This document shows, one piece after another, positions 6,001 through 58,909 of a stretch of DNA of 64,000 bases. A program made the translations under genes and the position numbers. A model generated the notes under the pieces. The model did no database searches and was not told where the DNA came from. It was given only the letters and a program-made list of their open reading frames with translations. The stretch is from Schmidtea nova (lineage: Eukaryota), in the NCBI GenBank assembly GCA_044892505.1, contig CM097883.1, positions 418,004,001 through 418,068,000 of the forward strand, given 5' to 3'. The first letter of the stretch is position 1, and each line of letters opens with the position of its first letter.

Positions 6001-9000
6001 GTTAGTAGTGTTACATCTGTGAATCGATTTATAAGCATAATATAATTTTGTTTGTCAGAATTCTTCTTTGTTTTTTTGTTTATATAATTTGATGATAATA
6101 TTTGATGTGGTTATTTATTTTATAATTGAATTTGGAAATTTTTTAGATAATAGCACTCTCGTTATAAAATATCGTTCATCCGGTCAATTTACGTATGGTA
6201 TGATGTATTTGTTGATTATTTCTATTTGATTCTGATTTGGTTTTTGTTTATTAATGTTGCGGTGATACAATATAATATATTAATTACTAACAATTTGTAC
6301 AATTTATTAACAATTTCTTTATCTTATTAAGCCTCGAAAGACAGCAATGATAATGATCAAGAAGAATGGGAAACGGCTTCTGAAGGTGGCAGTGTTCGCA
6401 GTAATAGTGCTCCTAGAGATATGCACAAATTACACATGAATCGGCAAAATAATTCTCAGCTTAATGCGACAGAAAATAAAGTAATGTCAAATAGCAACAA
6501 TGAAAATAGAAAAGTAGCAATGAATAAAAATGGATCAAGTCAGTTTTTATTTTTTAAATATGATTGTTTTTCAATATGAAAATTAATATGTAGAAAATAA
6601 GTAGTGGAATTTAATTCTAAATTGTGATGCTTATTATAATTGTTTCAAAAATAATGCATTTTTGCGTAAAAGAAATACTTACGGTCCAACAGATTCAGTA
6701 TCCGTTAAAATTAATTTTAGATGTCGGCTCCCATTTGCAATGTTGACATTATTTTTAATAAATATTTCTGATGATTTTTGTGTTCTCATTTCTGTGAAAA
6801 TTTTTACTCCATTTTCAAATNNNNNNNNNNNNNNNNNNNNNNNNNNNNNNNNNNNNNNNNNNNNNNNNNNNNNNNNNNNNNNNNNNNNNNNNNNNNNNNN
6901 NNNNNNNNNNNNNNNNNNNNNNNNNNNNNNNNNNNNNNNNNNNNNNNNNNNNNNNNNNNNNNNNNNNNNNNNNNNNNNNNNNNNNNNNNNNNNNNNNNNN
7001 NNNNNNNNNNNNNNNNNNNNNNNNNNNNNNNNNNNNNNNNNNNNNNNNNNNNNNNNNNNNNNNNNNNNNNNNNNNNNNNNNNNNNNNNNNNNNNNNNNNN
7101 NNNNNNNNNNNNNNNNNNNNNNNNNNNNNNNNNNNNNNNNNNNNNNNNNNNNNNNNNNNNNNNNNNNNNNNNNNNNNNNNNNNNNNNNNNNNNNNNNNNN
7201 NNNNNNNNNNNNNNNNNNNNNNNNNNNNNNNNNNNNNNNNNNNNNNNNNNNNNNNNNNNNNNNNNNNNNNNNNNNNNNNNNNNNNNNNNNNNNNNNNAAT
7301 ACTATAGATCAAAATTATTTTTTTAAACAAGTACACAATATTTCGGCATGCTTGATAATACACACTTGATAAAGGCTCTTCCTAAATATTGTGTACTTGT
7401 TTCAAAAAAATAATTTTGATCTATAGTATTATGGAAATTATTGATATTAATAATAATATACAATAGATAAAAATTTTTTACTTTATTAATATTAATATCA
7501 ATAATTTCCATAAGACTAGATTCTTTGGTCTTATGGCAATTATTGATATTAATATCAAAGAAAGATCAAACGTGAAACAAAAAGATAATTATGATATTTA
7601 TTATCATTGTTATTTGTTATTATTTTTATGTANNNNNNNNNNNNNNNNNNNNNNNNNNNNNNNNNNNNNNNNNNNNNNNNNNNNNNNNNNNNNNNNNNNN
7701 NNNNNNNNNNNNNNNNNNNNNNNNNNNNNNNNNNNNNNNNNNNNNNNNNNNNNNNNNNNNNNNNNNNNNNNNNNNNNNNNNNNNNNNNNNNNNNATTTAA
7801 TAATAATTAGATAATATTATTATTTACTAATTGTATATTTAATTATTTAACTAATTTTCAATTTGTACAAACCGTATCAAATTTAATAAAACAGCCTTTT
7901 TCAAGAATTGACAAAGTAATATTAATAACAATTATTCAATTTAACTTTTATTAATAAGAAAAAATTAAAGAATTCTAAATAAAATTGTCATTTTCAGTTG
8001 GTCATAATCATTTTTCCAAAACCTTTTTTATTCTTCAATTCTTATCCAAATGATTTTTTATTTATTCTAATTTAATACACTTTAGAAATTGAATTTTTAT
8101 TACATTATTATTTTATTATATTTCACACCAACAAAACAATTTTCCAATAAAATCATTTTGTAGGAAATTAAATTTTATTTCCGCAATATTACGCAATATT
8201 TTATATCAGTGAAATATACAAATTTAATTACAAAAATGCGTATCACTAAATTTCCAATCAAGCTATTTTTAAGAAATTAAAATTTTATCTGTATAATATT
8301 TCAATTAAAACTCATTAAAGCATATTTATATAGACGACAAATGCAAATGTAATTGCAAAACACGAGTACACACCAACACACAAAATTTCTAATCAACCCA
8401 TTTTCTAAAAAAATAAATTTTATACATTCACCTTTGATCTTTTTTTATTAATATCAATAATTTCCATAATGGTAGGACTATTATTTTTTTTAAACATACA
8501 ATATTACAATGAAAATAAAATATAAATATTTTATATAGGTTAAATTTACAACTTTAATTACAAAACTCGTGTGCACTACACTTTAAATATTGAATAAAAC
8601 CATCTTGTAGACAATTAAATTTTACCTATCCATTGTTTCACTAAAAACCTGAATAAACCGACATAAAGAACGTTAGAAAAAACCGGAGAAGCGTGAACCC
8701 CCTTTTTAAAAATTTTTTTTTAAATTTAAAAAAAAATTGACATTAAAAGGGAGGTTTTTCGATTTATTGGTTATAACTCATTGGTTATAACTTCATCTAC
8801 AAAAATATATTAAACTTCGGATATGACATCTGATTCATCTATCAAATAATAGAAGTATCCCAAATTTAGTATATTTGAAGATATAAGAAATTCTATGTAT
8901 ATTTGGCTGCAATTTAAGTGACTATGGAAATTTTAACTAATGAACGCTTTAGTGAGGAAAATAAACTTTACGCAATTTGGCTGATAAAGATTATTCCAGG

Positions 9001-11205
9001 TCATATTCAGAAGGTGAATTCTATTGAATTATTATAACATAATAAACATTTTTTCATCAGTATTTTCTAAAAATTTTTATTGTATATGGGTTATAAGTAT
9101 AAATATTGTATCCGAAAATTAACCCGACAAAACGTGACACATTTTAAAAGTTTTTAAAATTTAAATATTTAGAAAAAAATTGCTTAAAAATTATTTTTTT
9201 ATTAAGTTGTAATGTTATTATTTGCAATTAGTAATATAAAAGAGAACATTCCTTTATAAAACAATATCAACTGTCAATTCAACTGTCAATAATATATCTT
9301 AAAAAGCTTAAATCTGAAGAGCAAGGACATCCGTAAACAAATCTATCACAAATTCAACGGATGGTAGCGGATATGATTCATATCCACAAAATAGTTTTTC
9401 ACCTGTTTGGAAATGTCACTTTTACCATTATTGAGCGAATATAATTAATACTATATTAGCATTAATATTTGATATTGCAAATCGTGTATTGTTATTTATT
9501 TGTTGATTTCTTAAGCAAGATAATATTTTGAATTTTCATCTTTTTAATGTTTGGAAATTCATAAACGCTTTGAAAATTTGAGGTCAATAAGAAGTCTTTT
9601 CTACTTTATAATTATTTGGAAAGTTTCGTATTTTTAACCATATATTTCCAACTGGTTATAATTAGTTTTAATTTATAATTCCAGAATCTCCTTGATATTT
9701 ACTGTGAATTATTTCTTAATTGTTAAATTAAAGCCATTGAAAATTATATATTTTTAAAAAACGAAACTTTTCACTAAGAGACTTGGAATCGTCCATAATA
9801 AATAAATTATAAATTTGCCATAGTTCGTTGAANNNNNNNNNNNNNNNNNNNNNNNNNNNNNNNNNNNNNNNNNNNNNNNNNNNNNNNNNNNNNNNNNNNN
9901 NNNNNNNNNNNNNNNNNNNNNNNNNNNNNNNNNNNNNNNNNNNNNNNNNNNNNNNNNNNNNNNNNNNNNNTCTTGAGACTAATATAGAAATAATAATAGT
10001 AAAATAATTGATACAGACATATTTAAACTTCAACATATATAGGTAAAGAAAATGTATTTTGTTTTAATAATCCATTATTGTTTAAGTATACTTTTGCGAA
10101 CATTCGAAAAATGCCTCTGGAAACTATTCAATACCGTAGCGTTATTCGCTTTCTCTTTCTAAAAGGAAAAAATAGAGAAAAAAAATACACAGCAACAATT
10201 TATCGTTGTTTCAATTACTTTCAGAGTGGTATAACCTCCGTGGTGGACGAAGAAAGATCTGGAAGACCCTCAGAAATTGATGGAAAAAATAACGCAAAAG
10301 CTGCAGACAATCGTGCAAAACGAGAGAAAAATAACGACGAGAGAGCTCACAACCCGTCTAAATGTGAGCAAAGGCACTGTGCATACTCTCCTCACTGAAA
10401 GTGGTATTCGAAAACGATGTTCCCGTTTTGTGCCACGCTTCTTAACGGTGGAAATGCAACAACGACGCTTTGAGAATCTGCAGATCAGGACCAATTTTGG
10501 AAACCGTTTCATTGATAATATCATCACTGTGGAAGAGACACCGTTGTCCCTTTATGTCCCCGAATCTAAAAGAGAGTCTCAAGAATGGAAACTGCCAGGA
10601 GAAAGCAGCTCACTGAAAATGCGGTCCTCAACTTTCCACCGAAAGGCTCTCATGCTGACGGTGTTTTGGGACGCCAATGGCATTATTCTGACTGACTTTG
10701 CTGAATCCGGCGTGAAGATCAATAGTTCTTACTACTCCAACATCGTGCAGCAAGCAAGGAAGGCACGACGCAAGAGCAGAGTGTGATCTCTATTTTTTAC
10801 ACGATAATGCTTCCATCCACACCAGTAGCGTTTCCATGGTCAAAATTGAGGGTTGCGGGCTCAATTTGCTTCCCCATCCACCATACAGCCCCGAGTTGGC
10901 TCCCTCCGATTTTTTCCTGTTTAACCATCTTAAGAAGCATCTGCGGGGCCAGGTGTTTGCCAACAAACATGATTTGAGAGCAGCCGTGGAGAGTTTTCTG
11001 GGAGAAAAGCCTCCAGAATTCTTCAAAAACGCCTTCGAAAACCTCGTTATTCGCTGGGAAAATTGTGTCAGTGCAGAAGGAAATTTTTTGAGAAATGATG
11101 CCTATTTACCATGCTTGCTCTAAATACAAAGTTTTGTGTTGATATCTTAAGTCTTTCTATTTTAGTCTCAAGACTTATTGGGCGCACCACTTACATATCC
11201 ATATC

Positions 11206-43649: not shown

Positions 43650-46600
43650 TCAATAATCTTCGTCAAATTCCAAATCATCATCTTCTTCATAATTTGTTAC
43701 ATCATTTACTCTGACAGTTGCTAATTTTGCACCTTTAACTGCTTTCTTTTTCTTACCGGTAGTCTAGAATTCATTATCAAATAAATGGCCATTACTTATC
43801 GAATGCGACGGTTCTTTTTTCTTACTTTTTGTACTTTTGATTTTTCATTTGCTAATGCATTGAACATTACTGAGAATTTCTTTAAAGTGTCGACATCAGC
43901 TGAGAAATAAATTGTTGATAATAAGCAATTCATAAAATGTGAATCATAAATCAAAGCTAGCAAAATTTTTGATAATATACATTTAATTCATATCATAATT
44001 CATATCAAGGCCTGAAAAATCCCTCGATTCGCATAGAAATAATAAAGTTAGAACAAAGTTCTTTTATATTTGAACTAAGACACACAAATGTTATAAATCT
44101 ACAAGTTTGTTTTAATGGATTAATATTTAATTTTAGTCATTCGGCGATAAGAAAATGAGTGAAATTATTTAACATATTAAAGAAGCATATAGGAGAATGG
44201 CTCCGACAGAGCAAGTGTTTTTGGATGTCGAAGAGGGGGAAGACCTGGAGAAATTGCAAAATTGAAGGAAATTTTATTTAAGAACAGGAAAATTACACAA
44301 ATGGAATTTTCATTAAAACTAATTGTTTGCAAGAGAACAATACAGCTTATGTTGTATCAATTGGGATTCAGGAAATTGTGTAGGAGGTTCGTTCCACGGT
44401 TTTATCGGCAGATATGATAGATATACGTTTTGTAGCAATAAATTGTTGTGAAAACTAAATATGCAATTATACACAATCATCGTAAATGTCACAATATTTT
44501 TTTTCTAATTTGAGTTTGCAAAAAAGGACTTGAATCCGAAAAGCAATTACGCGTGGAAACTGGGTTGATTGGGTCGTGAAAGTCTTGGAAAGAATTGTTT
44601 ATTTTAATTATTGTTTGATCAACATGCTCTAAATGCGAAGATACGCTGTAAAACTGCACGATTTATGCTTAGACTGACCATTTGCGCGGAATCATTCGGG
44701 ACAGTTCCAGATTGGCACCTCTGTCCCCGAATCCCGGTTTGGCTACAATATGTTCCGGTTTAGAAATTTTTTTCTTTTTTAAGCTTTGCATATATTCGTA
44801 ACGGAAAAATTAAAAAGGTCATTCGCAGCTAGGTCATTTTTACATTGAGAAATTTCTGGAAATTGGTTTAAAATCAATATCTGTTCTTAGAAAATACATA
44901 AAGCCATTTGTTTCAGTTGTAAAACGCTTGTAAGTATGAATTTAATAATTGCTTGATTGAAAAAATTGATTAAGAATGTCATCAGCAAGTAAACATCGAA
45001 AAACCTCGAGTTTGGATTTATACAAAAAGTTCAGGATGATGAATCACCGGCGATTTGTACAATCTGTTCAAGTCGATTTCTTATCGTTCATGGTGGTCGT
45101 CAAGATATTCTGGATCACATCAAGTCAGATCGTCATACATCAGGTGTAAAAGCTGGATCATCAAGCAAGAAAGTCAGCGATTATTTTCAAAAATTGACAG
45201 CAACGAATGACGAGCAGAAGGTAGCTGGAAAAGAAGAAGTTTTTTTTACATTTCACACTGCAAAACACAATTATTCATTTCGTTCAAATGACTGTACTGT
45301 TGGACTTATCAGAGGACTCTATGATCCAAAGTTTTCACTCGGAAAGACAAAGACTGTAAAATTGTTCTCCAAAGTATTGGCTCCATTCATTGACAAATCA
45401 ATCAAAGAAGCATTAAGCAAGGCTAATTTTGTCTCTCTTATTACCGACACATCAAACCATGGAAACATAAAAATGCTGCTTATCGTTGTACGATATTTTG
45501 ATTCAGCAAGAAATTGGCTATGCCCAACACTTATTTGTCTGGTGTTAAAGGCAACGATGACATGTTTCAATGCATTCTGTTGATATAAATATATTTTGAG
45601 TACCTGGATAAATTTGAAGGATTTGTATTTTGTTTATCTTGGTTGGCATATAGCTGAGTTGCAGATAACCGAAAAGTAAGAATATCGATTTATTTGTTTT
45701 TTATTTTAATTTTTTACTTAAATTTATTCTAGTTAATTAAAAATCATGCCACGAATAGATTTTCGTATAATTTACCTTCACAAGTTTATACTCGGGCACA
45801 ATGTGATGAAAGCAACTCTAAAAATCAATGTGAGTTTGGAGGAAGTTAGGGCATTCGAATCAAAAATGCGATTCTGATTTACTAAATTTTGCGGTGAAGA
45901 TTTTGGTCTTGACGATTAAGAGGGACCAAAGATTGGTGGAATAATATCCACCATTTCTCTACGTTTAAACATGATTGGTGGAATAATATCCACCATTTCT
46001 CTACGTTTAAACATGATTGGTGGAATAATATCCACCATTTCTCTACGTTTAAACATGATTGGTGGAATAATATCCACCATTTCTCTACGTTTAAACAGGA
46101 TTGGTAAGATGAAAAATATGACTAAATGGGCTAAATGAACGACAAAAAAGAAAAAAGATATAAAATCTGTTCAATGCTGTTTATCCGAAACCACAATAAC
46201 CAATTCTGCAATCGAATAATCACTTGTGGCGAGAAACGGATACTCTAGGATTAACATAAAAAGTTTCATGATAACGGATTATTTCTGAGATATTTTCAAA
46301 AACCATGTGATGATCAGTTTGGTGGTCACGAGCATGTTGAAACAATAAATGGGCTGGGACGCTAGTTGGCCAGATAAATGAGAGAACGCAGATATAGGGA
46401 TGAGGTTTGTTAAAGGGAAACCGGCATTAAAATGTGGTGTAGCTATGTTGGAAACTAATTACCCAGGTATTTACGTGTCAAGACAAGCAGCACCAAATGC
46501 AAAACCTAAGATAGATACCAATGACATCAAATTGCACGTGTATTTAAATAACAAAATGGATTTTTTATTCCATAAAGGTCAAGCATCAATGGAAAAAATA

Positions 46601-49600
46601 TACTACGATCTCATTAACAACGACTGTATATTAAATAGAGTAATATTAAAGACGAAACTAGCAGTAGCAATTACAAACCCGGATAGTGCGATGTCATCAC
46701 TACCACTTAATGAAGGTCCGATTACGACGAGGGCAATGCACCAACGAACTAGAAATCGAATATAAAGGAAAATAAGATATGTACAACCAGTAACAAGGAT
46801 CATTAATCCAGTTAGTTTTGAACCAAACCCTTTCAATTGCAGTAATGCATACGGACCATTGTATGAGAAACCAGACGGAAATTGGGCTATGTTTCCTTCA
46901 AGAACAGAAGTACAACAACCTAAAGAATTCGAATTAAAGGACGAAAATTTTCCAATGTGGATGTAAATAATGGAGGAATTTACAGTGCAAAAGACCTTGA
47001 AGCAGCACGACAAAATATATTATTCGCAGCTAGAAGAGAAGCGGTATTATCTAGTATCTTAACGATAACAGGAGGAACAAGCTATCAAGGAGGACCAAAT
47101 TACGAATTATTATAATCACCAGCAACGGAAAATATGATGAAGGCAATGTGGGGACGATTTTTAATTTTCGGACAAATGATGGCCGGAATATTAGGTGTAA
47201 TTTTGATTATACAGATAATACGAGTAATAATAACACAAATGCTAGCATGCTTCGATATTTACAAACGAGAAAAGAAAGTTAATTGGAAACTAATAGTAGG
47301 ATTTTTACCATTTTTAACTAAAACGATAGTGTTACATGGTCACTACTCCAAAGATATTCATAGAATAAAAAGATTATTAAAAATACTGGCAAAAATGAAA
47401 GGAACAGATGAAGACGTGGGAAGAAAATTCAAAATGATAATGAAGGATGAGCAAGCGAGACAGCAATTAAAGAGAAAGAAAAGGATTATGGGAAAGAATA
47501 GGAGGATATATAACCCAAAATGATTCCAGTGATGACGACGATAACAATGACGACTGCGAAGGAGGACAAAGGTATAGAAACCAAGCAGTACAATATATCG
47601 CAAGAATCCAGTGGAAGCATGGAAATGTTACGCACCTCCACCTACAATGTATCAAGAACCACTACAGGCATTAGTACCCAGAGCAACGCAAATGATGCCA
47701 ATGACAAATCTATATCCAATTATACCAGAAGATTATAAACTAAGACGATGTAGAAGCATGGATCCGCAAGGAGATTCACACACAATTGCAGTCATGTCAT
47801 CGAATACAGGACCAGTACTAACCACAACCATAGAAATAAATGGAAAAGAAGTAGAGGTAATGATAGACACAGGAGCAAACATTTCGGCGATAGACATTAA
47901 ATGGATACCGCAAGAACAGAGACGAGAAATCGAAAGAACAAACGTTCATGTAATCGCATGTAGCAAGGAGATAGTTGAAGTTGCAGGAAGATGGTGGGTG
48001 AAAATAAGACACCAAAATATAGAAATCGAAACCTATGTAGCAGTAATTCCAGCATTAAGTGTACCATGTATGATCGGAACAGATTTAATGCCAGCACTAT
48101 TCAAAGAAATAATCATTGACCTAGGAACAATGAGATTAAAAGACAGACCAGGAAAAATATGTGCCATGGAAGCAAAAGTAATAAGCTCGAAACAAATGAT
48201 AATACCAGCAAGAAAAGAGAAAATATGTTATGTCAAAATAGACCCTACAATAGAAGGAGACATGGTTTTCGAACCCAACAAGAGATTCGAAATAAATATG
48301 CTCAGAGCAGAAGAAATGAACACAGTCAGTCAAGTAGACAGTGAGAAAATCGAGGTTGACAAAGAAATCGTACGAAAAGCCAAAGAAATAAACGAAAGAT
48401 GGAAAATCAAAAGGGAAAAAGACGTATTATGTGATATTTGACAAATAATTAGCGATTACGCTAGAGGATTCCCAACCAAATCAGTTATAATTGAACTACT
48501 AAGAAAAATACCAGAGATACTCGTATTACAAGATATAGGAGGTGCAACCGCACTACACAATGCCATAAAGTGGGGTGAAACGGAAAAAGTGAAAGAGTTC
48601 CTGAACATAGCAAAAGAAACGAATCAAAATCTCGACATTGGAAACGCCAATGATGACAGCAACACTAACCTTAGTGGATAAGGAAATAGTAGATATGCTG
48701 ATAAACGCAGATGTCAACTGGGCAGCTTGTGATAGAAGAGGAGATACAGTTCTTAACCACGCAATAATAAGCGCAAATCAGATGGTACTAAGACATATAA
48801 CTAACAACCTCACATTGGAAATCAATGAATTAATAAAAGGAGAAATTAAAAAGGAGGCAATTAGGAAAGGAAATACAAAAACAATACGGAAACTAATAAG
48901 ATGGAAATGGCCGAATAACGAAACATGGGTATTAGACATAAATCAAGAATTTAGCGAAGGACAGAATGCGTTATTGTGATACCTTTTAGAGTTTACGTGC
49001 GATCAGAAAACAATGTTAGCACTAATAAATAGAGGAAAAATAAATATCAGCAAAAACGAAGAATACAAACTAGAAGTCGAAAAGAAAGCTTTATTCAGGA
49101 AAATCTGGATATGGTGCCAAAGACAACTACACAAAGACATAAGTTACAAGGATCTAACCGATTTCCAAAATAAGCATCAAACGATAATAAAGGAACACAA
49201 GAAACTAGTAGAGATATTAAACGACCCAGAAAAATTTAACCAAACAATAAGTCAGAAAGAAGAGGAGAGTAAAAGGATATTCACACCATTGTTCAACGCG
49301 AAGATAGATTACCAAGAAAGATTGGATGCAATACATGAAAAAGCGAAAGAACTATTACCAGAATTCAAGAATACTAAATACGCCTTAGAAATACTTGGCG
49401 CGAAAAGGAGTGTATATTGAAGACGATATAGCAATTATAAAAAGAGAAATGCCAGTTGCATTTTTATTAACTAAGGAAAAAATAATGCCGATTCATAGAG
49501 CATTAAGAGCAGGAAAAGATAACAAGGTAATCGAAATCGCAAGATTAATGCATAAGTCAGAGTATTAGAAGAGTTATATAAAGCAGGCGTAAGATTAATA

Positions 49601-52600
49601 GGAAAAACTGTCAAAGACAACTCAATATTGGACGTGACATTATTAGGTCATAACTGGGAAATGTTGAATTTCATTAAAACGATAACCAATCAGGAAGAGA
49701 TAGATTACCTAACCTAAACAGTAAAAGGACCCAGCGTATTGACAATGATGCAAAAGACCGAATTGACAGAAGAAGTGCTAAATTGGAAATACCAAATACA
49801 AACGAACCAGCTTTTAGAGTCAACAAGTTTATGGAGAAAAACCAAAATTGGTGTATCAGAAGCGCACTATTAACTTACAAATGGCCTGAAATTGTGGAAA
49901 TTTTCATGAGAAGAGAAGACCTGAGATTTACGAACAAGTCTAAAGAAACGGAAAGGAGAGGCGAATGGAAGGAACTGATGAGAACACACATCCAAAGTTG
50001 GATAAAAGCCAAGAAAGAAACTATGCAGTACAGGTTAAACAACAAAAAGATACCCGAAAATATACCCGAAAATATAGAAATCCAAGAATTCGAGGCAAGT
50101 AACCTAGCAACACTAGCTTATGCAAAAATAATAGAAGCGATTAATGTCGAGGACGACATTTTCAACGAGCCAGGGAGAGATAATAATAGTGACAATGACG
50201 ATGAGAGAAATTATGAAAATCCAGATAACCACGAACAAACCAAAGAAAGCGACGAACAAACCAACAAAGAAGGTGAAAATCAAGAGGGAAACACAAAGAA
50301 ACCAGAACCCAAGAAACAAAGAGAAGACAGCAATAAAAACAATAATGAAAAGAAAGGAACAAGTTACAAAAAGAATCCATTTTCAGACCAGAATTACTAA
50401 TACTGGCAATAGTTATAACACTTATGGGACAGGGAGAAGCAACGGAACAACAGACATCAGTAGAAATAATAAACCCGATACAACAAGCATCAATACAAAT
50501 GATGAATTCAAAGGACATTGAACAAGTATGTTGGGTAAGAGAAAATGAACTTCTCGGAAATAACAACCCACTACGATGCATAGACCCAGAACCCGATCAG
50601 AAAACCATAATAATTGACGAAATGGATATGAAAACATGGTATAGGATATGTACAATAAAAAAACCCAAAGACGCAAAATCACACAAAACAGCAGCATGTC
50701 AAGTACTCGAAACACCTAAAGCAACAAAAATAATTAGATATAAGTTCTCCAATGGAATAGATCTTCCAGGACCATTTCATTTTAGAATAACAAAAGCACC
50801 AACAATAAGAAACGTCTTACAACAACCAAGAACCAAGATAACAACAATAAGTACAAGGAATACAACGGATAAACCAGAAGCAAAAAGACTCACGAAACAA
50901 ACCACGAGAGTAACCTACAATACCAAGTTATTATGTATAACACTCATACTAACAATATTGAAGCGATTGGAAGAAGGAATAGAAATGGATACAATGACAT
51001 TAACAGACCTAGAATATACACAAACGACAAATCAAAAATGTTGGTTTAGAAACGACGAGCAATTAGAATTAAATGAACCAAGAGCAAGTCAGAAATCGGA
51101 GGTGGGAAAAACAAGCAAAGTAAACAAGATAGTAAAAATAAAAACGGACAGAACTCATAAACTATGTTTATTAGAAAAAGAGAGAAACAGGCGAGGAATG
51201 ACCAATTGTAAAACATTTCAAGCAGGAAAAATAATAACGTTTGCAAGAAAAATGGGAGGAAGAAATAAACAATACTTCCAGAAATTAACCATAACGTTAG
51301 AAATAATGGGAATAGAACAAAATGTAAAGGGAGTATGTTGGAGAAAATACGAGAAAGAAACGAAAAATCAGAGGAACAACTACAGTACAAATAAAAAGAT
51401 AAGAAAGAAATCAAACATACGAAATATGTTTAGTAAAGGAAAATGATCAAATAACGATAGACGATTCAGAATGCAGAATTTACAAAGCACCGAACAGAGT
51501 AAAAACCAATAGAACAATACGAAAGAATAAAAGACAACGAAATAAAAGAAAACCGAAGCATACTCAGTAACACTTATACTTTGGAAGATAGATAAAAGAA
51601 CAATAGAAATATGTTGGTCAATGATCCAGAAACACGAAGGAAGACAGCCACAGCAATGAGAAAATATGAACAAAGAAGAGGAGATTAGAATGGAGAACCT
51701 ACAAGTGGACAAACAATACGAAATATGTTCCATAGAGAAGGCAGATACATTCGAAAACCAACAAGAAAAATGTGAAACATACTATACACCGACAAATACA
51801 ACGACCAAAGGAAGAATCATGAAACTAACCTTCAATAAACTAAGTCAAACAACGGAGCAAATGGAAAGCGAGGAAACAATAATAGACTCTTATGCAAAAT
51901 GAAAACCAGAGAAAGTAATCCAAGAAGTCAAAAGGAAACAACAAGAACGACAAAAATTAGAACTCGAATTAAAAGGACAATATGGACTAATGATCAATCA
52001 GAGCAAATTCACCCAAATCAATGTCAACAAGCAAGGAAGAGAATTAATTTGCATAGGAATACTGGCAGTAAGCGTACCAGTAATAATAATATTATCAATA
52101 ATAAGGCTATGGGACATAATGAAAAAGAAACCAACCATACAATGGCCAGATATAAAGATTATGAATTGTAAAATCAAAATACCTGAAGAAGTGAAAAAAG
52201 AATTTCAAAGAAGAACCAAAGGCAAAGAATTCTGGAAACAGATAGAAGATGAAGAGCAACACGATGAAAAGACAGTGATGAAAGTATAGAGGGTGGGATA
52301 TGACTGTAAATAATATTGTAAATTACAAAGCATTATAAAATATATAAAAAGAGAAAAGAGAAAAATAATAATGTATATAATTTAGAAAATGAATGTACAA
52401 GAAGGAATAACCGAAATGACTATGACAATGCGATGGAAAGCACAATGTAAAACGTTAGTTTGATCAATCAATTCACTACAAAATCAACTAGTAGAAAAGC
52501 AGAATTTATTAGCAGATTGCTACAACAACATTTTCGAACAACTGCATAAAATAGAGGAGCAACAGAGAATAGTAGAACTTACAAGAGAGAATCAGAGATT

Positions 52601-55600
52601 AAGACAGACAATGGAAATAAACCAACTATCAAGTAGGGAAACAGAAGAATCAGGAGGACAATGGCTAGATTGGGTAATAAATGGATTGGTGAATGACCTG
52701 GAACCTGATTCAACGAGCGAACCATAGTCAACTGTAGCGGAAAAATTGTATATGTAAAATAAAAAATTAGAAAATCAAAAATAAACAACAAATCAATGTA
52801 TATATTATTGTAGAAATGGATATTGAAGGTAAAGCCGAAGAAAAGATAATCTAAATACTGAGATTAGCAAACAGAAACTGGAGCAAGAGATTTTCATGTG
52901 GATATTGCAACAATTTATTACAGAAACCAAGGCAAACCACCTGTGGATGTAGGTTATGCACATAATGTGTACAAACATTAGAGTTAAAGAAAATAACAAA
53001 ATGCCCAGAATGTAAAGAGGGACAAATCGTGTACGAAGAGACAAGACCAGATAAAGCAACACAGAGAGAGAGAGATTATGTACACAATAATCGAATGTGT
53101 AAATCCCCCATGTATATGGCAAGGACCAATTAGTGAGATTAAAAATCATATAGAAAACTGTGAAGAAAAGAGAAGCGAATGTGAGAAATGTAAACAAGCG
53201 ATAATTTTAAAGGATAAAGAGAAACACAGAAATGAATGCAAGGAGGAAGAAATCGCATGTGAATATTGCGAAATTCGAGAAACAAGGAAGAGGAGCACAT
53301 CAATGTAAAAGAAGAGAAAATATTTGAACAGTATGTAGGAGTGTGCCCAAACAAATGTGAAATAACCGAAGAGGTGAAATTACGAGAACATTGGTAAGAG
53401 TGTACGGATATACCAAGAGAATGCCCTTACAACAAACATGGATGCAGAGAATAGTAGACTCAACAAGCCATGAAACAACATTTAGAAACAGAGGCAATCA
53501 ATCACATCGAAATGACAGATAAAACAATGTAGAAATTGGAAAACGAAATAGAATCTCATAAAATAATGACGAACCTATTATTAGAAACCAGAGAACAGTT
53601 CGAATTAACTCGGGAAAAGATGGAAGGGAAAATAAGAGCCATCGAAGAATTGGCAAAAGGAATGAAAGTGCAATATAACAAATTATTACGAGGCATCAAC
53701 GAAAGAAAAGATTTACCAATAGCACCATATGTATGGAAAATAACGGATTTCCTAGATAGATTAGCGGATGCACGAAGTTTTAAGCAAGTCGCGGTAATAA
53801 GCCCACCATTTTACTTATGGGAAAACGGGGCTAAAGTGAGATTGAAACTATACCCGAACGGAGATGGAAAATGTCTTGGAAAGCACGTATCAATATTTTT
53901 CGCGTTTTGCAAAGGAGAATATGACGATCTAATCGAATGGCCAATAGGAGAAAGACGATCATAAGAATCAAAAGTTTAAAAAAACCATAGAAAAGAAATT
54001 CACGACAGATAGAGGAGTAGATACGAAGAACAGACCAACAGAAGAATGCGGATTAGCAAGTGGAGAGCCATATTTTGTATCACAAAACAAGATATGGGGA
54101 TTATTGTATGAGGACACCTTATACATAGAAACGGAAAGGAATGAGAAAGTGGATAGAAAAGGATGGTCGGCGTAGTAAGAGGAATCATCGTGTAAATAAT
54201 ATGTACAGAAATAATCTAAAATAATAAATAAAAAATAATAAAAATATAGTCTGATTGAAAATATTTGTAATTATAGAAATGGGAAATGTCGAAATCTGTT
54301 TACAAGAAGTTACCGCACACCAAGACAAAGTTATTTGTGAACATTTAGAACAAATTGAGAATTGGATCCACGCATACTACCACAAACAGGAAGAAGTAGA
54401 AAGACAAGCCGAATTAATAAAAGAAGCCAAAAGAGCAAAGCGAATAAGTCAAGATAAAATAGAAGAACTATATGATTTACTGGGAAAACAGAAAGAATAT
54501 TATAAAAAGATGATGAAAGAACGACGAGAAGAAAGAGATCGAGAGCGAACAGAAATGGAACGTAAAATTTACTCCATAAAAGAACAAGCAAGGTATTGGA
54601 AAAAAGAAGCTAAAGAATCTTATATAAAAGCAAGAGATAATCGAGAAAACTGCTCATAGTGATGATTGGAAGTTATACGAAGAAATCGATAAATTGAAAG
54701 AAGAGTTAGAACAAAAGATCAGTCAAGAAACGTCGAATAAAAGATGAGATAAAAAGAGACAGCAATTCATCAGAGACCCAGTAAGGAAAATTAAACACGT
54801 ACATACCAGATCGAAAGATTGGGAAAGGAATTAAACATCAATAAACAACAAGGAAACACAAATCAGAGCATGGATTCAGAAAGAGGAAGACATGAAGCGC
54901 GATATAAATGGATATTAAGAAGTAATCACTCAAAAGAAGGTGGAATTAAAGACAACCAGAGAAAGATTAGAGGAAGCAAAGTGAAGCTATGAGGAAAATT
55001 TGGCAAATTTAACAAAGGAAAATGAAGAGTTGAAACAGAAACTGATACAAAAACTAGCACCACCAAAAGAAACATACATCACCACAGCAGTAATCAAAAT
55101 GATGGAAGAGGAAGAGAGAAAAGTCAAAATAACAGAATTAGAAAAACAGATAGAAGCGTTGACAGAACAGGCAAATTATTTGGAATACCTGTTAGACGAA
55201 GAAATTCAAGTATCTCACCTATATCGAGATGAAGTAACAAGGTGGAGAAACACGGTAGTGTGGTTACCACTCCCCATGAATCAAGTGGAACCTCAAGATG
55301 AAGGTTTCCACGAACCCAACGAATCGCTAGTTTAAAAAGAAGTGCGAAAATCCAATTGTAAATGTGGTAAAAATAACAATGTCAAACTGTATTGACAAAT
55401 ACGTAAAATAACACGAAGAAGCTCGCGATCCCGATAATCCTAAATATAACCACAATCACCTAGCAAATAAAGACATTCAACTCTCAGAAGAAAATCTGCC
55501 AGTTTTACCAGATAAAATCTATAAAGAAATAGACAATCTAATAAAAGAAACAGCCGAAACCAATCAAGTACAGTTGGTTTTGACACATTATACTCGTTGC

Positions 55601-57528: not shown

Positions 57529-58909
57529 CAAGATAAACCAATAAGTTTTGTCCGGTGCTCATACTCAGCTTTCCAATGCTGTAATGAGTGTATATGTCTG
57601 CAACTTTATGTGTCTATGCTATATATGTTGTAGATTTGTAAAATTTAAAAAAATCGCTTATTAATAATTTTTAACATTGCTATTAACTTTGATATGTCTT
57701 TCAAGGATTTAATAAATTTCTTTTAATTTACTTTTAATAAATTTCTTATTTGACTGAAATACTTTTTGTTTTCATTACGATACGTCGATTTGAAATGAAT
57801 TTCGCACAAGAGGATATCCGCAAGTTAATCTACTACAATTGGAAACGTGGATTAGTGCCTTCCACAGATTGCAAATGAAATAAATTTGACACTGGGGAAG
57901 GACACAACAAATGAGTGCACTTGTCGACGCTGGGTTTCAAACTTCAAGGAAGGAAACTTTGATATTGAAGACAAAGAGCGATGTGGGAGGCCCTCTCTTG
58001 ATATCAACAACAAAATTCTAGCTCTTTTGGAGGAGCACAACAGTACTGTAGAAATGAGCGTAGAGCTTGGAGTTTGTCAGCAGACAATTCGAAATCATCT
58101 GCTTGCAATGGGCATGCGTTACCTGTGCAACCACTAGGTCCCACACAAGTTGTCCGAGCAACAAATGGCCAACCGTAATAAAATATGCAACGAGCTGATG
58201 TGCAAGTATGCTGCTAATGACGTCCTCAGTCAGCTCATTACAATGGACGAAGTCTGGATCTGTTGGAACAACGACGGAACCTATCACCACCGTTCGTAAA
58301 GAGGCGCATGTGATGCCCCTGATGTGGAAGTTTGCCGCACATTGTCACCCAGGAAACATATCATGTCCGTCTTTTGGGACTGTAAAGGTGTGATTATGAT
58401 GGATATTCTGCCGCAGGGTGCTACAATAACTGCCAATGTTTACTGCGAACAGCTGTCCCGTCTGGTGACTGCAATACAACAAAAGCGACGCCGTCTTCTT
58501 GGTGGTGGGTTTCATCAAATTCACTGTCTCCACAACAATGCACGACCCCATACGGCAGCCAAATCTGTGCAAAAACTTACTGACATTGGTTTTACTGTTC
58601 TTCCACATCCCCCTTGCTCCCCAGACCTCGCACCATCCGATTTTTATTTGTGTTCCCCTTTAAAATCTACGATTCGTGGAAGAGATTTCAACGGAGTTGA
58701 TGAAATTCAAGTGGTTCTGGACTCTTGGTTGGACAGTAAACCACGCAGCTTCTTCGCCGATGAAATAAGGAAACTGTCTGGTCGATGGCGCCAATGTGTC
58801 CTTCTTAATGATGCAAATCTTGAACATCTCTCTGGCACAGATGATTGACATTTTTGATGTTTTGAAATTTATACATGTTTCACCGGACAAAACCTATTGG
58901 TTTATCCTG
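57529..58909 (+). mobile_element. Full-length but inactivated mariner (DD34D) element
   Basis: TIRs caagataaaccaataagttttgtccggtg / caccggacaaaacctattggtttatcctg with TA on both sides. Transposase 57795-58848 has ERCGRP, VPHKLS, TMDEVW, MSVFWD, HNNARPH, SPDLAPSDF, with stops and frameshifts. Confidence 0.95.

Follow-up and report, generated by a model that had tools for sequence, protein, structure and literature searches.

The closest described relatives of the element analysed here are the Burro retrotransposons of planarians. Burro1/GYPSM1 of Schmidtea mediterranea is a giant LTR element whose single polyprotein runs gag-env-PR-RT-RH-IN, with env in frame between gag and protease, and which carries ankyrin repeats and MATH cargo. 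The domain MATH_TRAF_C has been described inside the Burro1 polyprotein, and it has been proposed that Burro elements meddle with apoptosis and ubiquitination (PMC6431247). A Burro-like element of Dugesia tigrina has two CCHC knuckles, an ORF1 of 5,140 amino acids (aa) without MATH, and MATH in an accessory ORF upstream, for which only MATH_TRAF_C is named (PMC6431247, data not shown there). Burro RNA rises after PIWI loss (PMC8532177), and an expansion of planarian TRAF/MATH genes has been reported from transcript counts, in passages that draw no link to Burro (PMC6109357).

Two other kinds of TRAF protein are relevant for comparison. The TRAF2/3-like proteins of triclad hosts (D. japonica TRAF2-like A, ADF47429; Dendrocoelum 'TRAF-2/-4/-5', T1DF65, T1DBK6 and T1D122) have four modules, a length of about 450-490 aa and a CGC RING. 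Among genetic parasites, the megalocytivirus ISKNV has captured a host TRAF2-like gene, ORF111L, with a RING and a TRAF domain (PMC3352826).

The Schmidtea nova element described below shares the features listed above for Burro1, and the commonest long open frame among its RT matches has the length of the D. tigrina ORF1. It extends the cargo already reported for Burro elements. Whereas Burro1 has a lone MATH inside its polyprotein, the element analysed here has a separate, full RING-ZnF-CC-MATH gene 3' of the polyprotein. Its 5' accessory ORF is an IAP-type RING, and the element ORFs scanned gave no BIR domain. For one copy, searches of PDB, Pfam and Atlas with the part before env gave no BCL2-like match. 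The D. tigrina MATH ORF is upstream, whereas the gene here is downstream and includes a RING and zinc fingers; judged by description, a single type of element could lie behind both accounts. The element proteins fall in one clade with the triclad TRAF2/3-like proteins (94/90), but have the codon bias of the element and shortened and changed MATH loops. ISKNV ORF111L is an independent capture by a fish DNA virus, is 296 aa long and has been shown to bind TRADD (PMC3352826), whereas the element TRAF is known from sequence. A full RING-TRAF in Burro elements, its 3' position and data on its selection were not found in print, and the supplements of Grohme 2018 may already show a RING or zinc-finger annotation. 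The available portions of PMC13238120 and PMC11410931 do not mention TRAF.

The window, meaning the whole stretch of DNA that was analysed, comprises 64,000 nucleotides of S. nova (GCA_044892505.1, contig CM097883.1, positions 418,004,001 to 418,068,000). Its element fragment is called Burro-type by the description in section 7 of PMC6431247 rather than by sequence comparison with Burro-1 to -4. The features of this fragment are as follows.

46385..55554, + strand: Burro-type giant Ty3/gypsy element fragment, 9 kb, truncated, A-rich on the + strand
46385..47523, + strand: 3' part of env (Monjiviricetes-type fusion glycoprotein, PF24664), broken
47755..48120, + strand: aspartic protease
48472..52286, + strand: ankyrin repeats and unannotated C-terminal part of the polyprotein, broken
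52389..52727, + strand: 111-aa accessory ORF upstream of TRAF, no Pfam family above cut-off
52808..52813, + strand: TTGTAG directly 5' of the TRAF ATG, putative splice acceptor by its likeness to one, identical in three subfamilies
52816..54175, + strand: decayed TRAF accessory gene, RING-ZnF-CC-MATH, intronless
52897..53013, + strand: RING finger, with one stop within it in this copy
53087..53526, + strand: TRAF-type zinc fingers (PF02176), in two frames
53533..53721, + strand: coiled coil (TRAF-N)
53722..54172, + strand: MATH/TRAF-C domain (PF22486, PF21355), broken by two frameshifts
54279..55335, + strand: 353/367-aa accessory ORF downstream of TRAF, K/E-rich, no Pfam match, frameshifted here

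From 46385 to about 55554, the + strand consists of 41-51% A. No LTR of this fragment was found in the 64-kb window or in the next 10 kb. RT, RNase H and integrase are absent at a junction near 48290, after the protease. In a pol-bearing copy, the protease leads into pol and the sequence rejoins that of the window's fragment after integrase. At its other end, 3' of the 353-aa ORF, the fragment stops with the start of a 187-aa ORF. Just upstream of the fragment are four near-perfect 42-bp tandem repeats (45931-46098), and remnants that by eye resemble DNA transposases (mariner-like, BED/hAT-like) are present at 10280-10786, 58363-58848, 19305-20012 (- strand) and about 44950-45550.

The sequence-only reading of this window had proposed a complete intronless TRAF carried by a mobile element. 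The gene does sit inside the Burro-type fragment, and its four modules are in order, colinear with those of open copies and free of intron-sized gaps. The description as complete holds to this extent only, because the copy is not intact. Alignment to the reading frame of a natural open copy shows six in-frame stops (about 52852, 52963, 53395, 53452, 53455 and 53530) and four frameshifts (near 53070, 53280, 53955 and 53980). The gene begins with an ATG at 52816, its stop codon ends at 54175, and the longest ATG frame is 132 aa. A three-frame reading recovers the RING in frame 1, zinc fingers that shift frames, and then the coiled coil and MATH; in a Pfam scan, MATH scores above cut-off, with weaker matches for zf-TRAF and RING. 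The RING has CGC in place of the CGH of canonical TRAFs, as do triclad host paralogues. The window's copy is a dead pseudogene within an ordinary decayed fragment.

A DNA search of the same genome yielded 584 candidates, of which 40 were scored (85-100% identity), and nine copies chosen by their TRAF were mapped with 30-50 kb of flank. Both LTRs were recovered in five of the nine mapped copies (2.7-2.8 kb, 99.4-100% identical), and all three copies checked have TG..CA ends and 4-bp target duplications. The full-length order is LTR, 153-aa RING ORF, gag (two CCHC), env, protease, RT, RNase H, integrase, ankyrin, tail, accessory ORFs and LTR, where every domain from the gag CCHC to ankyrin was assigned by Pfam. 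Open frames around RT reach about 5,100 aa, and env shares the reading frame of gag and protease, which flank it. The polyprotein is followed by three or four accessory ORFs. TRAF, the second of these, is a separate gene some 2 kb before the 3' LTR; this position rules out a location inside the LTR. The 5' accessory ORF (153 aa; L048:2140-2598) matches XIAP/cIAP-type RINGs at E 7e-10.

A sample independent of TRAF, consisting of 20 copies from 113 scored RT candidates, has TRAF about 8 kb downstream of RT in every copy and MATH within the fetched stretch in 19. Among the mapped copies that reach the protease, six of seven are missing the pol core, and several also are without env, which implies that non-autonomous derivatives keep TRAF; as these copies were chosen by TRAF, they do not constitute a retention test. 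The loci L031-L050 and L051-L063 represent recent non-autonomous derivatives with differing internal deletions of the pol core, the env region or the ankyrin-tail region. Because several have near-identical LTRs, the derivatives likely were mobilised in trans.

Several other features were observed in these copies. Each LTR encodes an ORF of roughly 196 aa preceded by AG (L048:444-1031; L050:2879-3466), for which Pfam gives only a faint, sub-threshold likeness to SGNH/GDSL esterases (E 0.0025). The sequence just 3' of the 5' LTR (L038, about 7452-7475) resembles a tRNA-Pro primer-binding site. In one copy, env is interrupted by roughly 19 kb of inserted DNA (L032:3000-L034:1800), with related ORFs in L041; by eye, the inserted ORFs look like those of a Polinton/adintovirus-type element (ATPase, capsid and polymerase-like).

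TRAF-bearing copies number about 530, are dispersed, and belong to at least three subfamilies. Exact 20-mer counts gave 106 copies for alpha (the window's subfamily), 69 for beta and 100 for gamma, with controls at 0, and a family with MATH inside the polyprotein has 48 exact-20-mer sites (control 0). Genome-wide, degenerate motifs matched MATH at 536 sites (control 1) and RING at 527 (control 0), and they reveal at least one further subfamily. All of these counts are lower bounds. Protein identity to alpha is 68% for beta and 47-48% for gamma (48-69% overall among subfamilies).

An open full-length TRAF frame is retained by 23 of 40 alpha copies: 14 of the 30 picked by likeness to the window, which were the best 30 fetched of the 40 scored DNA matches, and 9 of the 10 same-subfamily copies picked by RT. 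Between subfamilies, NG86 gave dN/dS values of 0.16 (95% 0.10-0.22), 0.21 (0.11-0.32) and 0.13 (0.08-0.25), and LWL85 gave 0.31-0.38; at this distance dS is near saturation, and YN00 returned no result for three of four pairs. Across the 40 copies, pN/pS is 0.17-0.25 for variants shared by at least four copies, well below 1, and 0.56-0.85 for singletons (transition weight 1 or 4). The changes private to the window copy have a pN/pS of 1.05 (10 synonymous, 30 non-synonymous), and all 22 stop variants in the 40 copies are singletons. These patterns reflect purifying selection along transposing lineages and neutral decay after insertion, which indicates that the TRAF serves the element and not the host. 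It is very probably a selected accessory gene of the element.

The constraint is neither uniform nor exceptional. Constraint is evident in the zinc fingers, the coiled coil and MATH; NG86 dS reaches saturation in the coiled coil and in several alpha-gamma regions. The RING is the least constrained module (dN/dS 0.57, 95% 0.27-1.21, and 0.40, 0.17-0.99), which makes ligase activity uncertain. By LWL85, TRAF has a value of 0.30, compared with 0.19-0.29 for four neighbouring regions and 0.04 for integrase, so it is not specially constrained. The 187-aa ORF has a dN/dS of 0.36-0.71, above the other neighbouring regions.

As judged from its encoded domains, the protein is a member of the TRAF family (TRAF2/3/5-like), with RING, zinc fingers, coiled coil and MATH all present. 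In an open copy, MATH/TRAF-C scores 72 bits for PF22486 and 63 bits for PF21355, above cut-off, with TRAF3 as its best PDB match (E 5e-21), and the zinc fingers score 30 bits for PF02176. The stretch from the RING to the first zinc finger matches TRAF5 (7l3l_A, E 7e-14) and aligns to TRAF5/6/2. The RING has its eight zinc ligands, the His being replaced by Cys as in the triclad paralogues; its Pfam scores remain below cut-off. An AlphaFold model of an open copy (pLDDT 83) has TRAF1/2/3/5 as its best Foldseek matches and contains a long helix at residues 225-294, corresponding to the coiled coil. A homotrimer of residues 235-445 is predicted at 0.79 against 0.34 for the best control (contact agreement at least 90%, pLDDT at least 82). 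In a microbial calibration, 21 of 30 solved pairs attained that mark and none of 23 monomers did; among animal pairs, 7 of 16 attained it. Because structures of TRAF trimers have been solved, the prediction may merely reproduce what the model had learned from them. The TRAF3 stretch SSSF, which binds receptor peptides, aligns to ATSN in the alpha subfamily, and the ligands may differ from host receptors as a consequence.

The gene appears to have resided in the element for a long time. At fourfold-degenerate sites, A makes up 61-65% in three element TRAFs and 63-67% in element integrase and polyprotein, compared with 30-41% in eight host TRAF frames. This element-like codon bias, suspected from the window's letters, points to long residence, as do the purifying selection and the divergence among subfamilies. 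The lack of introns is hardly informative and may be inherited, because at least six host loci (L071, L075, L076, L077, L090 and L137) also have RING to MATH in one open frame; such single-frame host TRAFs rule out intronlessness as proof of retro-capture.

Sequence comparisons suggest that the element acquired its TRAF long ago from among the triclad TRAF2/3-like paralogues with a CGC RING, with no single donor gene identified. The element TRAF is 22-29% identical to the host paralogues of this genome. A search for protein relatives with a single element TRAF gave no matches, the same search with an alignment gave one unnamed match, and the best relative found by further search has 39% identity. 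In a 41-row full-length tree that includes 26 outside proteins and 11 host frames, the element proteins are monophyletic (100/100), with P0015, a metagenome protein that has no name, as their sister (99/97). This clade is placed in the group (94/90) that holds the single-frame host genes, D. japonica TRAF2-like A and the Dendrocoelum TRAFs, nearly all with a CGC RING; TRAF3/5-like rows from molluscs, echinoderms and fish fall outside that group. Long-branch effects may play a part in this tree, given the unusual composition of the element rows. Both the Burro-type element and the nearest named proteins point to a triclad flatworm as the host. P0015 itself is a 452-aa TRAF on a 2.7-kb contig and may be an element-borne TRAF of another flatworm.

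Host MATH genes were surveyed by scoring 150 of 2419 PF21355 candidates and fetching 34 non-element loci. About 60 of the 150 scored matches lie at C2:405-455 Mb, mostly as short frames. This host cluster (L071, L074-L077, L081-L100, L139, L140) includes local tandem arrays and also holds several intronless full-length TRAF2-like genes. The window lies inside this region and contains a second, divergent MATH frame of host type (38960-39652, - strand), which scores 75 bits for PF21355 and falls with the cluster; an exon for a RING or zinc fingers to go with it was not found in the window. Element copies inflate raw genome-wide MATH counts. A 158-row MATH tree served as a quick tree only, and a 46-row tree, from which three host rows were omitted (the long-branch window MATH and two near-duplicates), leaves deep forks open and groups the polyprotein-embedded MATH weakly with full TRAFs (93/53).

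The suggestion that element copies had fed the expansion of the host TRAF family finds no support in this sample, in which the 12 host-cluster rows form their own clade (100/99) and no sampled host row nests inside the element clade (100/100 in the full-length tree). Domestication of element-borne copies as a source of planarian TRAF expansion consequently seems distinctly improbable. It would fit the intronless state of the host TRAF2/3-like paralogues, a tree that forces element MATH and the host cluster together as sisters is not rejected (AU p 0.30), and the sample covers only part of the candidates; however, the host loci are without the A bias, private changes decay neutrally after insertion, and 30 of the 34 loci have no element protein other than TRAF in the flanks fetched. 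The other four have a 35% env-like scrap (three) or a distant gypsy pol on the other strand (one). That the TRAF is a functionless processed pseudogene, passively carried, has a negligible probability, although it would suit the broken copy of the window, in which private changes evolve neutrally. About 530 copies, TRAF in all 20 copies picked by RT, 23 of 40 open frames, and dN/dS well below 1 both for shared variants and between subfamilies contradict this idea, and a one-off pseudogene with dN/dS near 1 was not what the genome contained.

For a gene that serves the element, the function that on balance seems likely is that of a trimeric TRAF2/3-like adaptor and ubiquitin ligase that dampens death or innate-immune signalling in the cell in which the element replicates. 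TTGTAG precedes the TRAF ATG in all three subfamilies and a T-rich AG stands just before most other accessory-ORF ATGs, which suggests separate spliced or trans-spliced messages. The TRAF would putatively be expressed from a sub-genomic RNA spliced or trans-spliced at the AG just before its ATG. With intact copies, the modelled trimer would form and would interfere with, or be recruited into, host TRAF signalling. In survival signalling from TNF receptors, TRAF2 cooperates with cIAPs, and the element TRAF probably acts together with the IAP-type RING protein of the element, with an outcome for the cell that would be pro-survival. Cells of S. mediterranea depend on host TRAF2-like genes for survival, since RNAi of two host TRAF-like genes led to cell death and lethality (PMC7586133). 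On the other side, BURRO1 RNAi gave no improvement of the smedwi-2 phenotype (PMC8532177), and the viral TRAF of ISKNV was reported to induce apoptosis (PMC3352826), which leaves the sign of the effect open.

The same evidence of selection, from dN/dS between subfamilies and pN/pS of shared variants, would also be expected if the TRAF served the element's life cycle by ubiquitin-dependent removal of restriction factors or in particle assembly and budding. We regard such a role as unlikely. It would suit an element with env and a second RING protein, a ligand-side MATH motif that has diverged from TRAF3, and the long element branch, but all four TRAF modules and the predicted trimer interface have been kept, and the apoptosis domains BIR and BCL2-like have been reported from related elements (PMC6431247). 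A role in promoting cell death or stress signalling for particle release is improbable. Here the precedent is ORF111L, and an env gene makes an extracellular phase possible; against this, an integrated element inherited via stem or germ cells would be expected to gain from host-cell survival, and the TRAF travels with an IAP-type RING.

The survival-signalling reading also has a stronger form, which is tentative and doubtful as a whole: that these elements might be enveloped endogenous planarian viruses with the first full-length retroelement TRAF, which has its own spliced message and forms with the IAP-type protein a private TRAF-IAP module that hijacks the essential host TRAF2-like survival pathway of stem cells. 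If this were true, cells that lost PIWI silencing would be swamped by a dominant signalling adaptor made from about 530 copies.

Overall, what had been a label on a Burro map, 'MATH_TRAF_C', becomes a defined, selected gene that is open to expression studies, knock-down and assay, and this makes the open 'tinkerer' proposal for Burro elements directly testable. Furthermore, hundreds of planarian MATH/TRAF matches are element cargo. Counts of the TRAF/MATH expansion and RNAi designs thus must distinguish this cargo from two sets of host genes, the tandem cluster and the intronless TRAF2-like genes.
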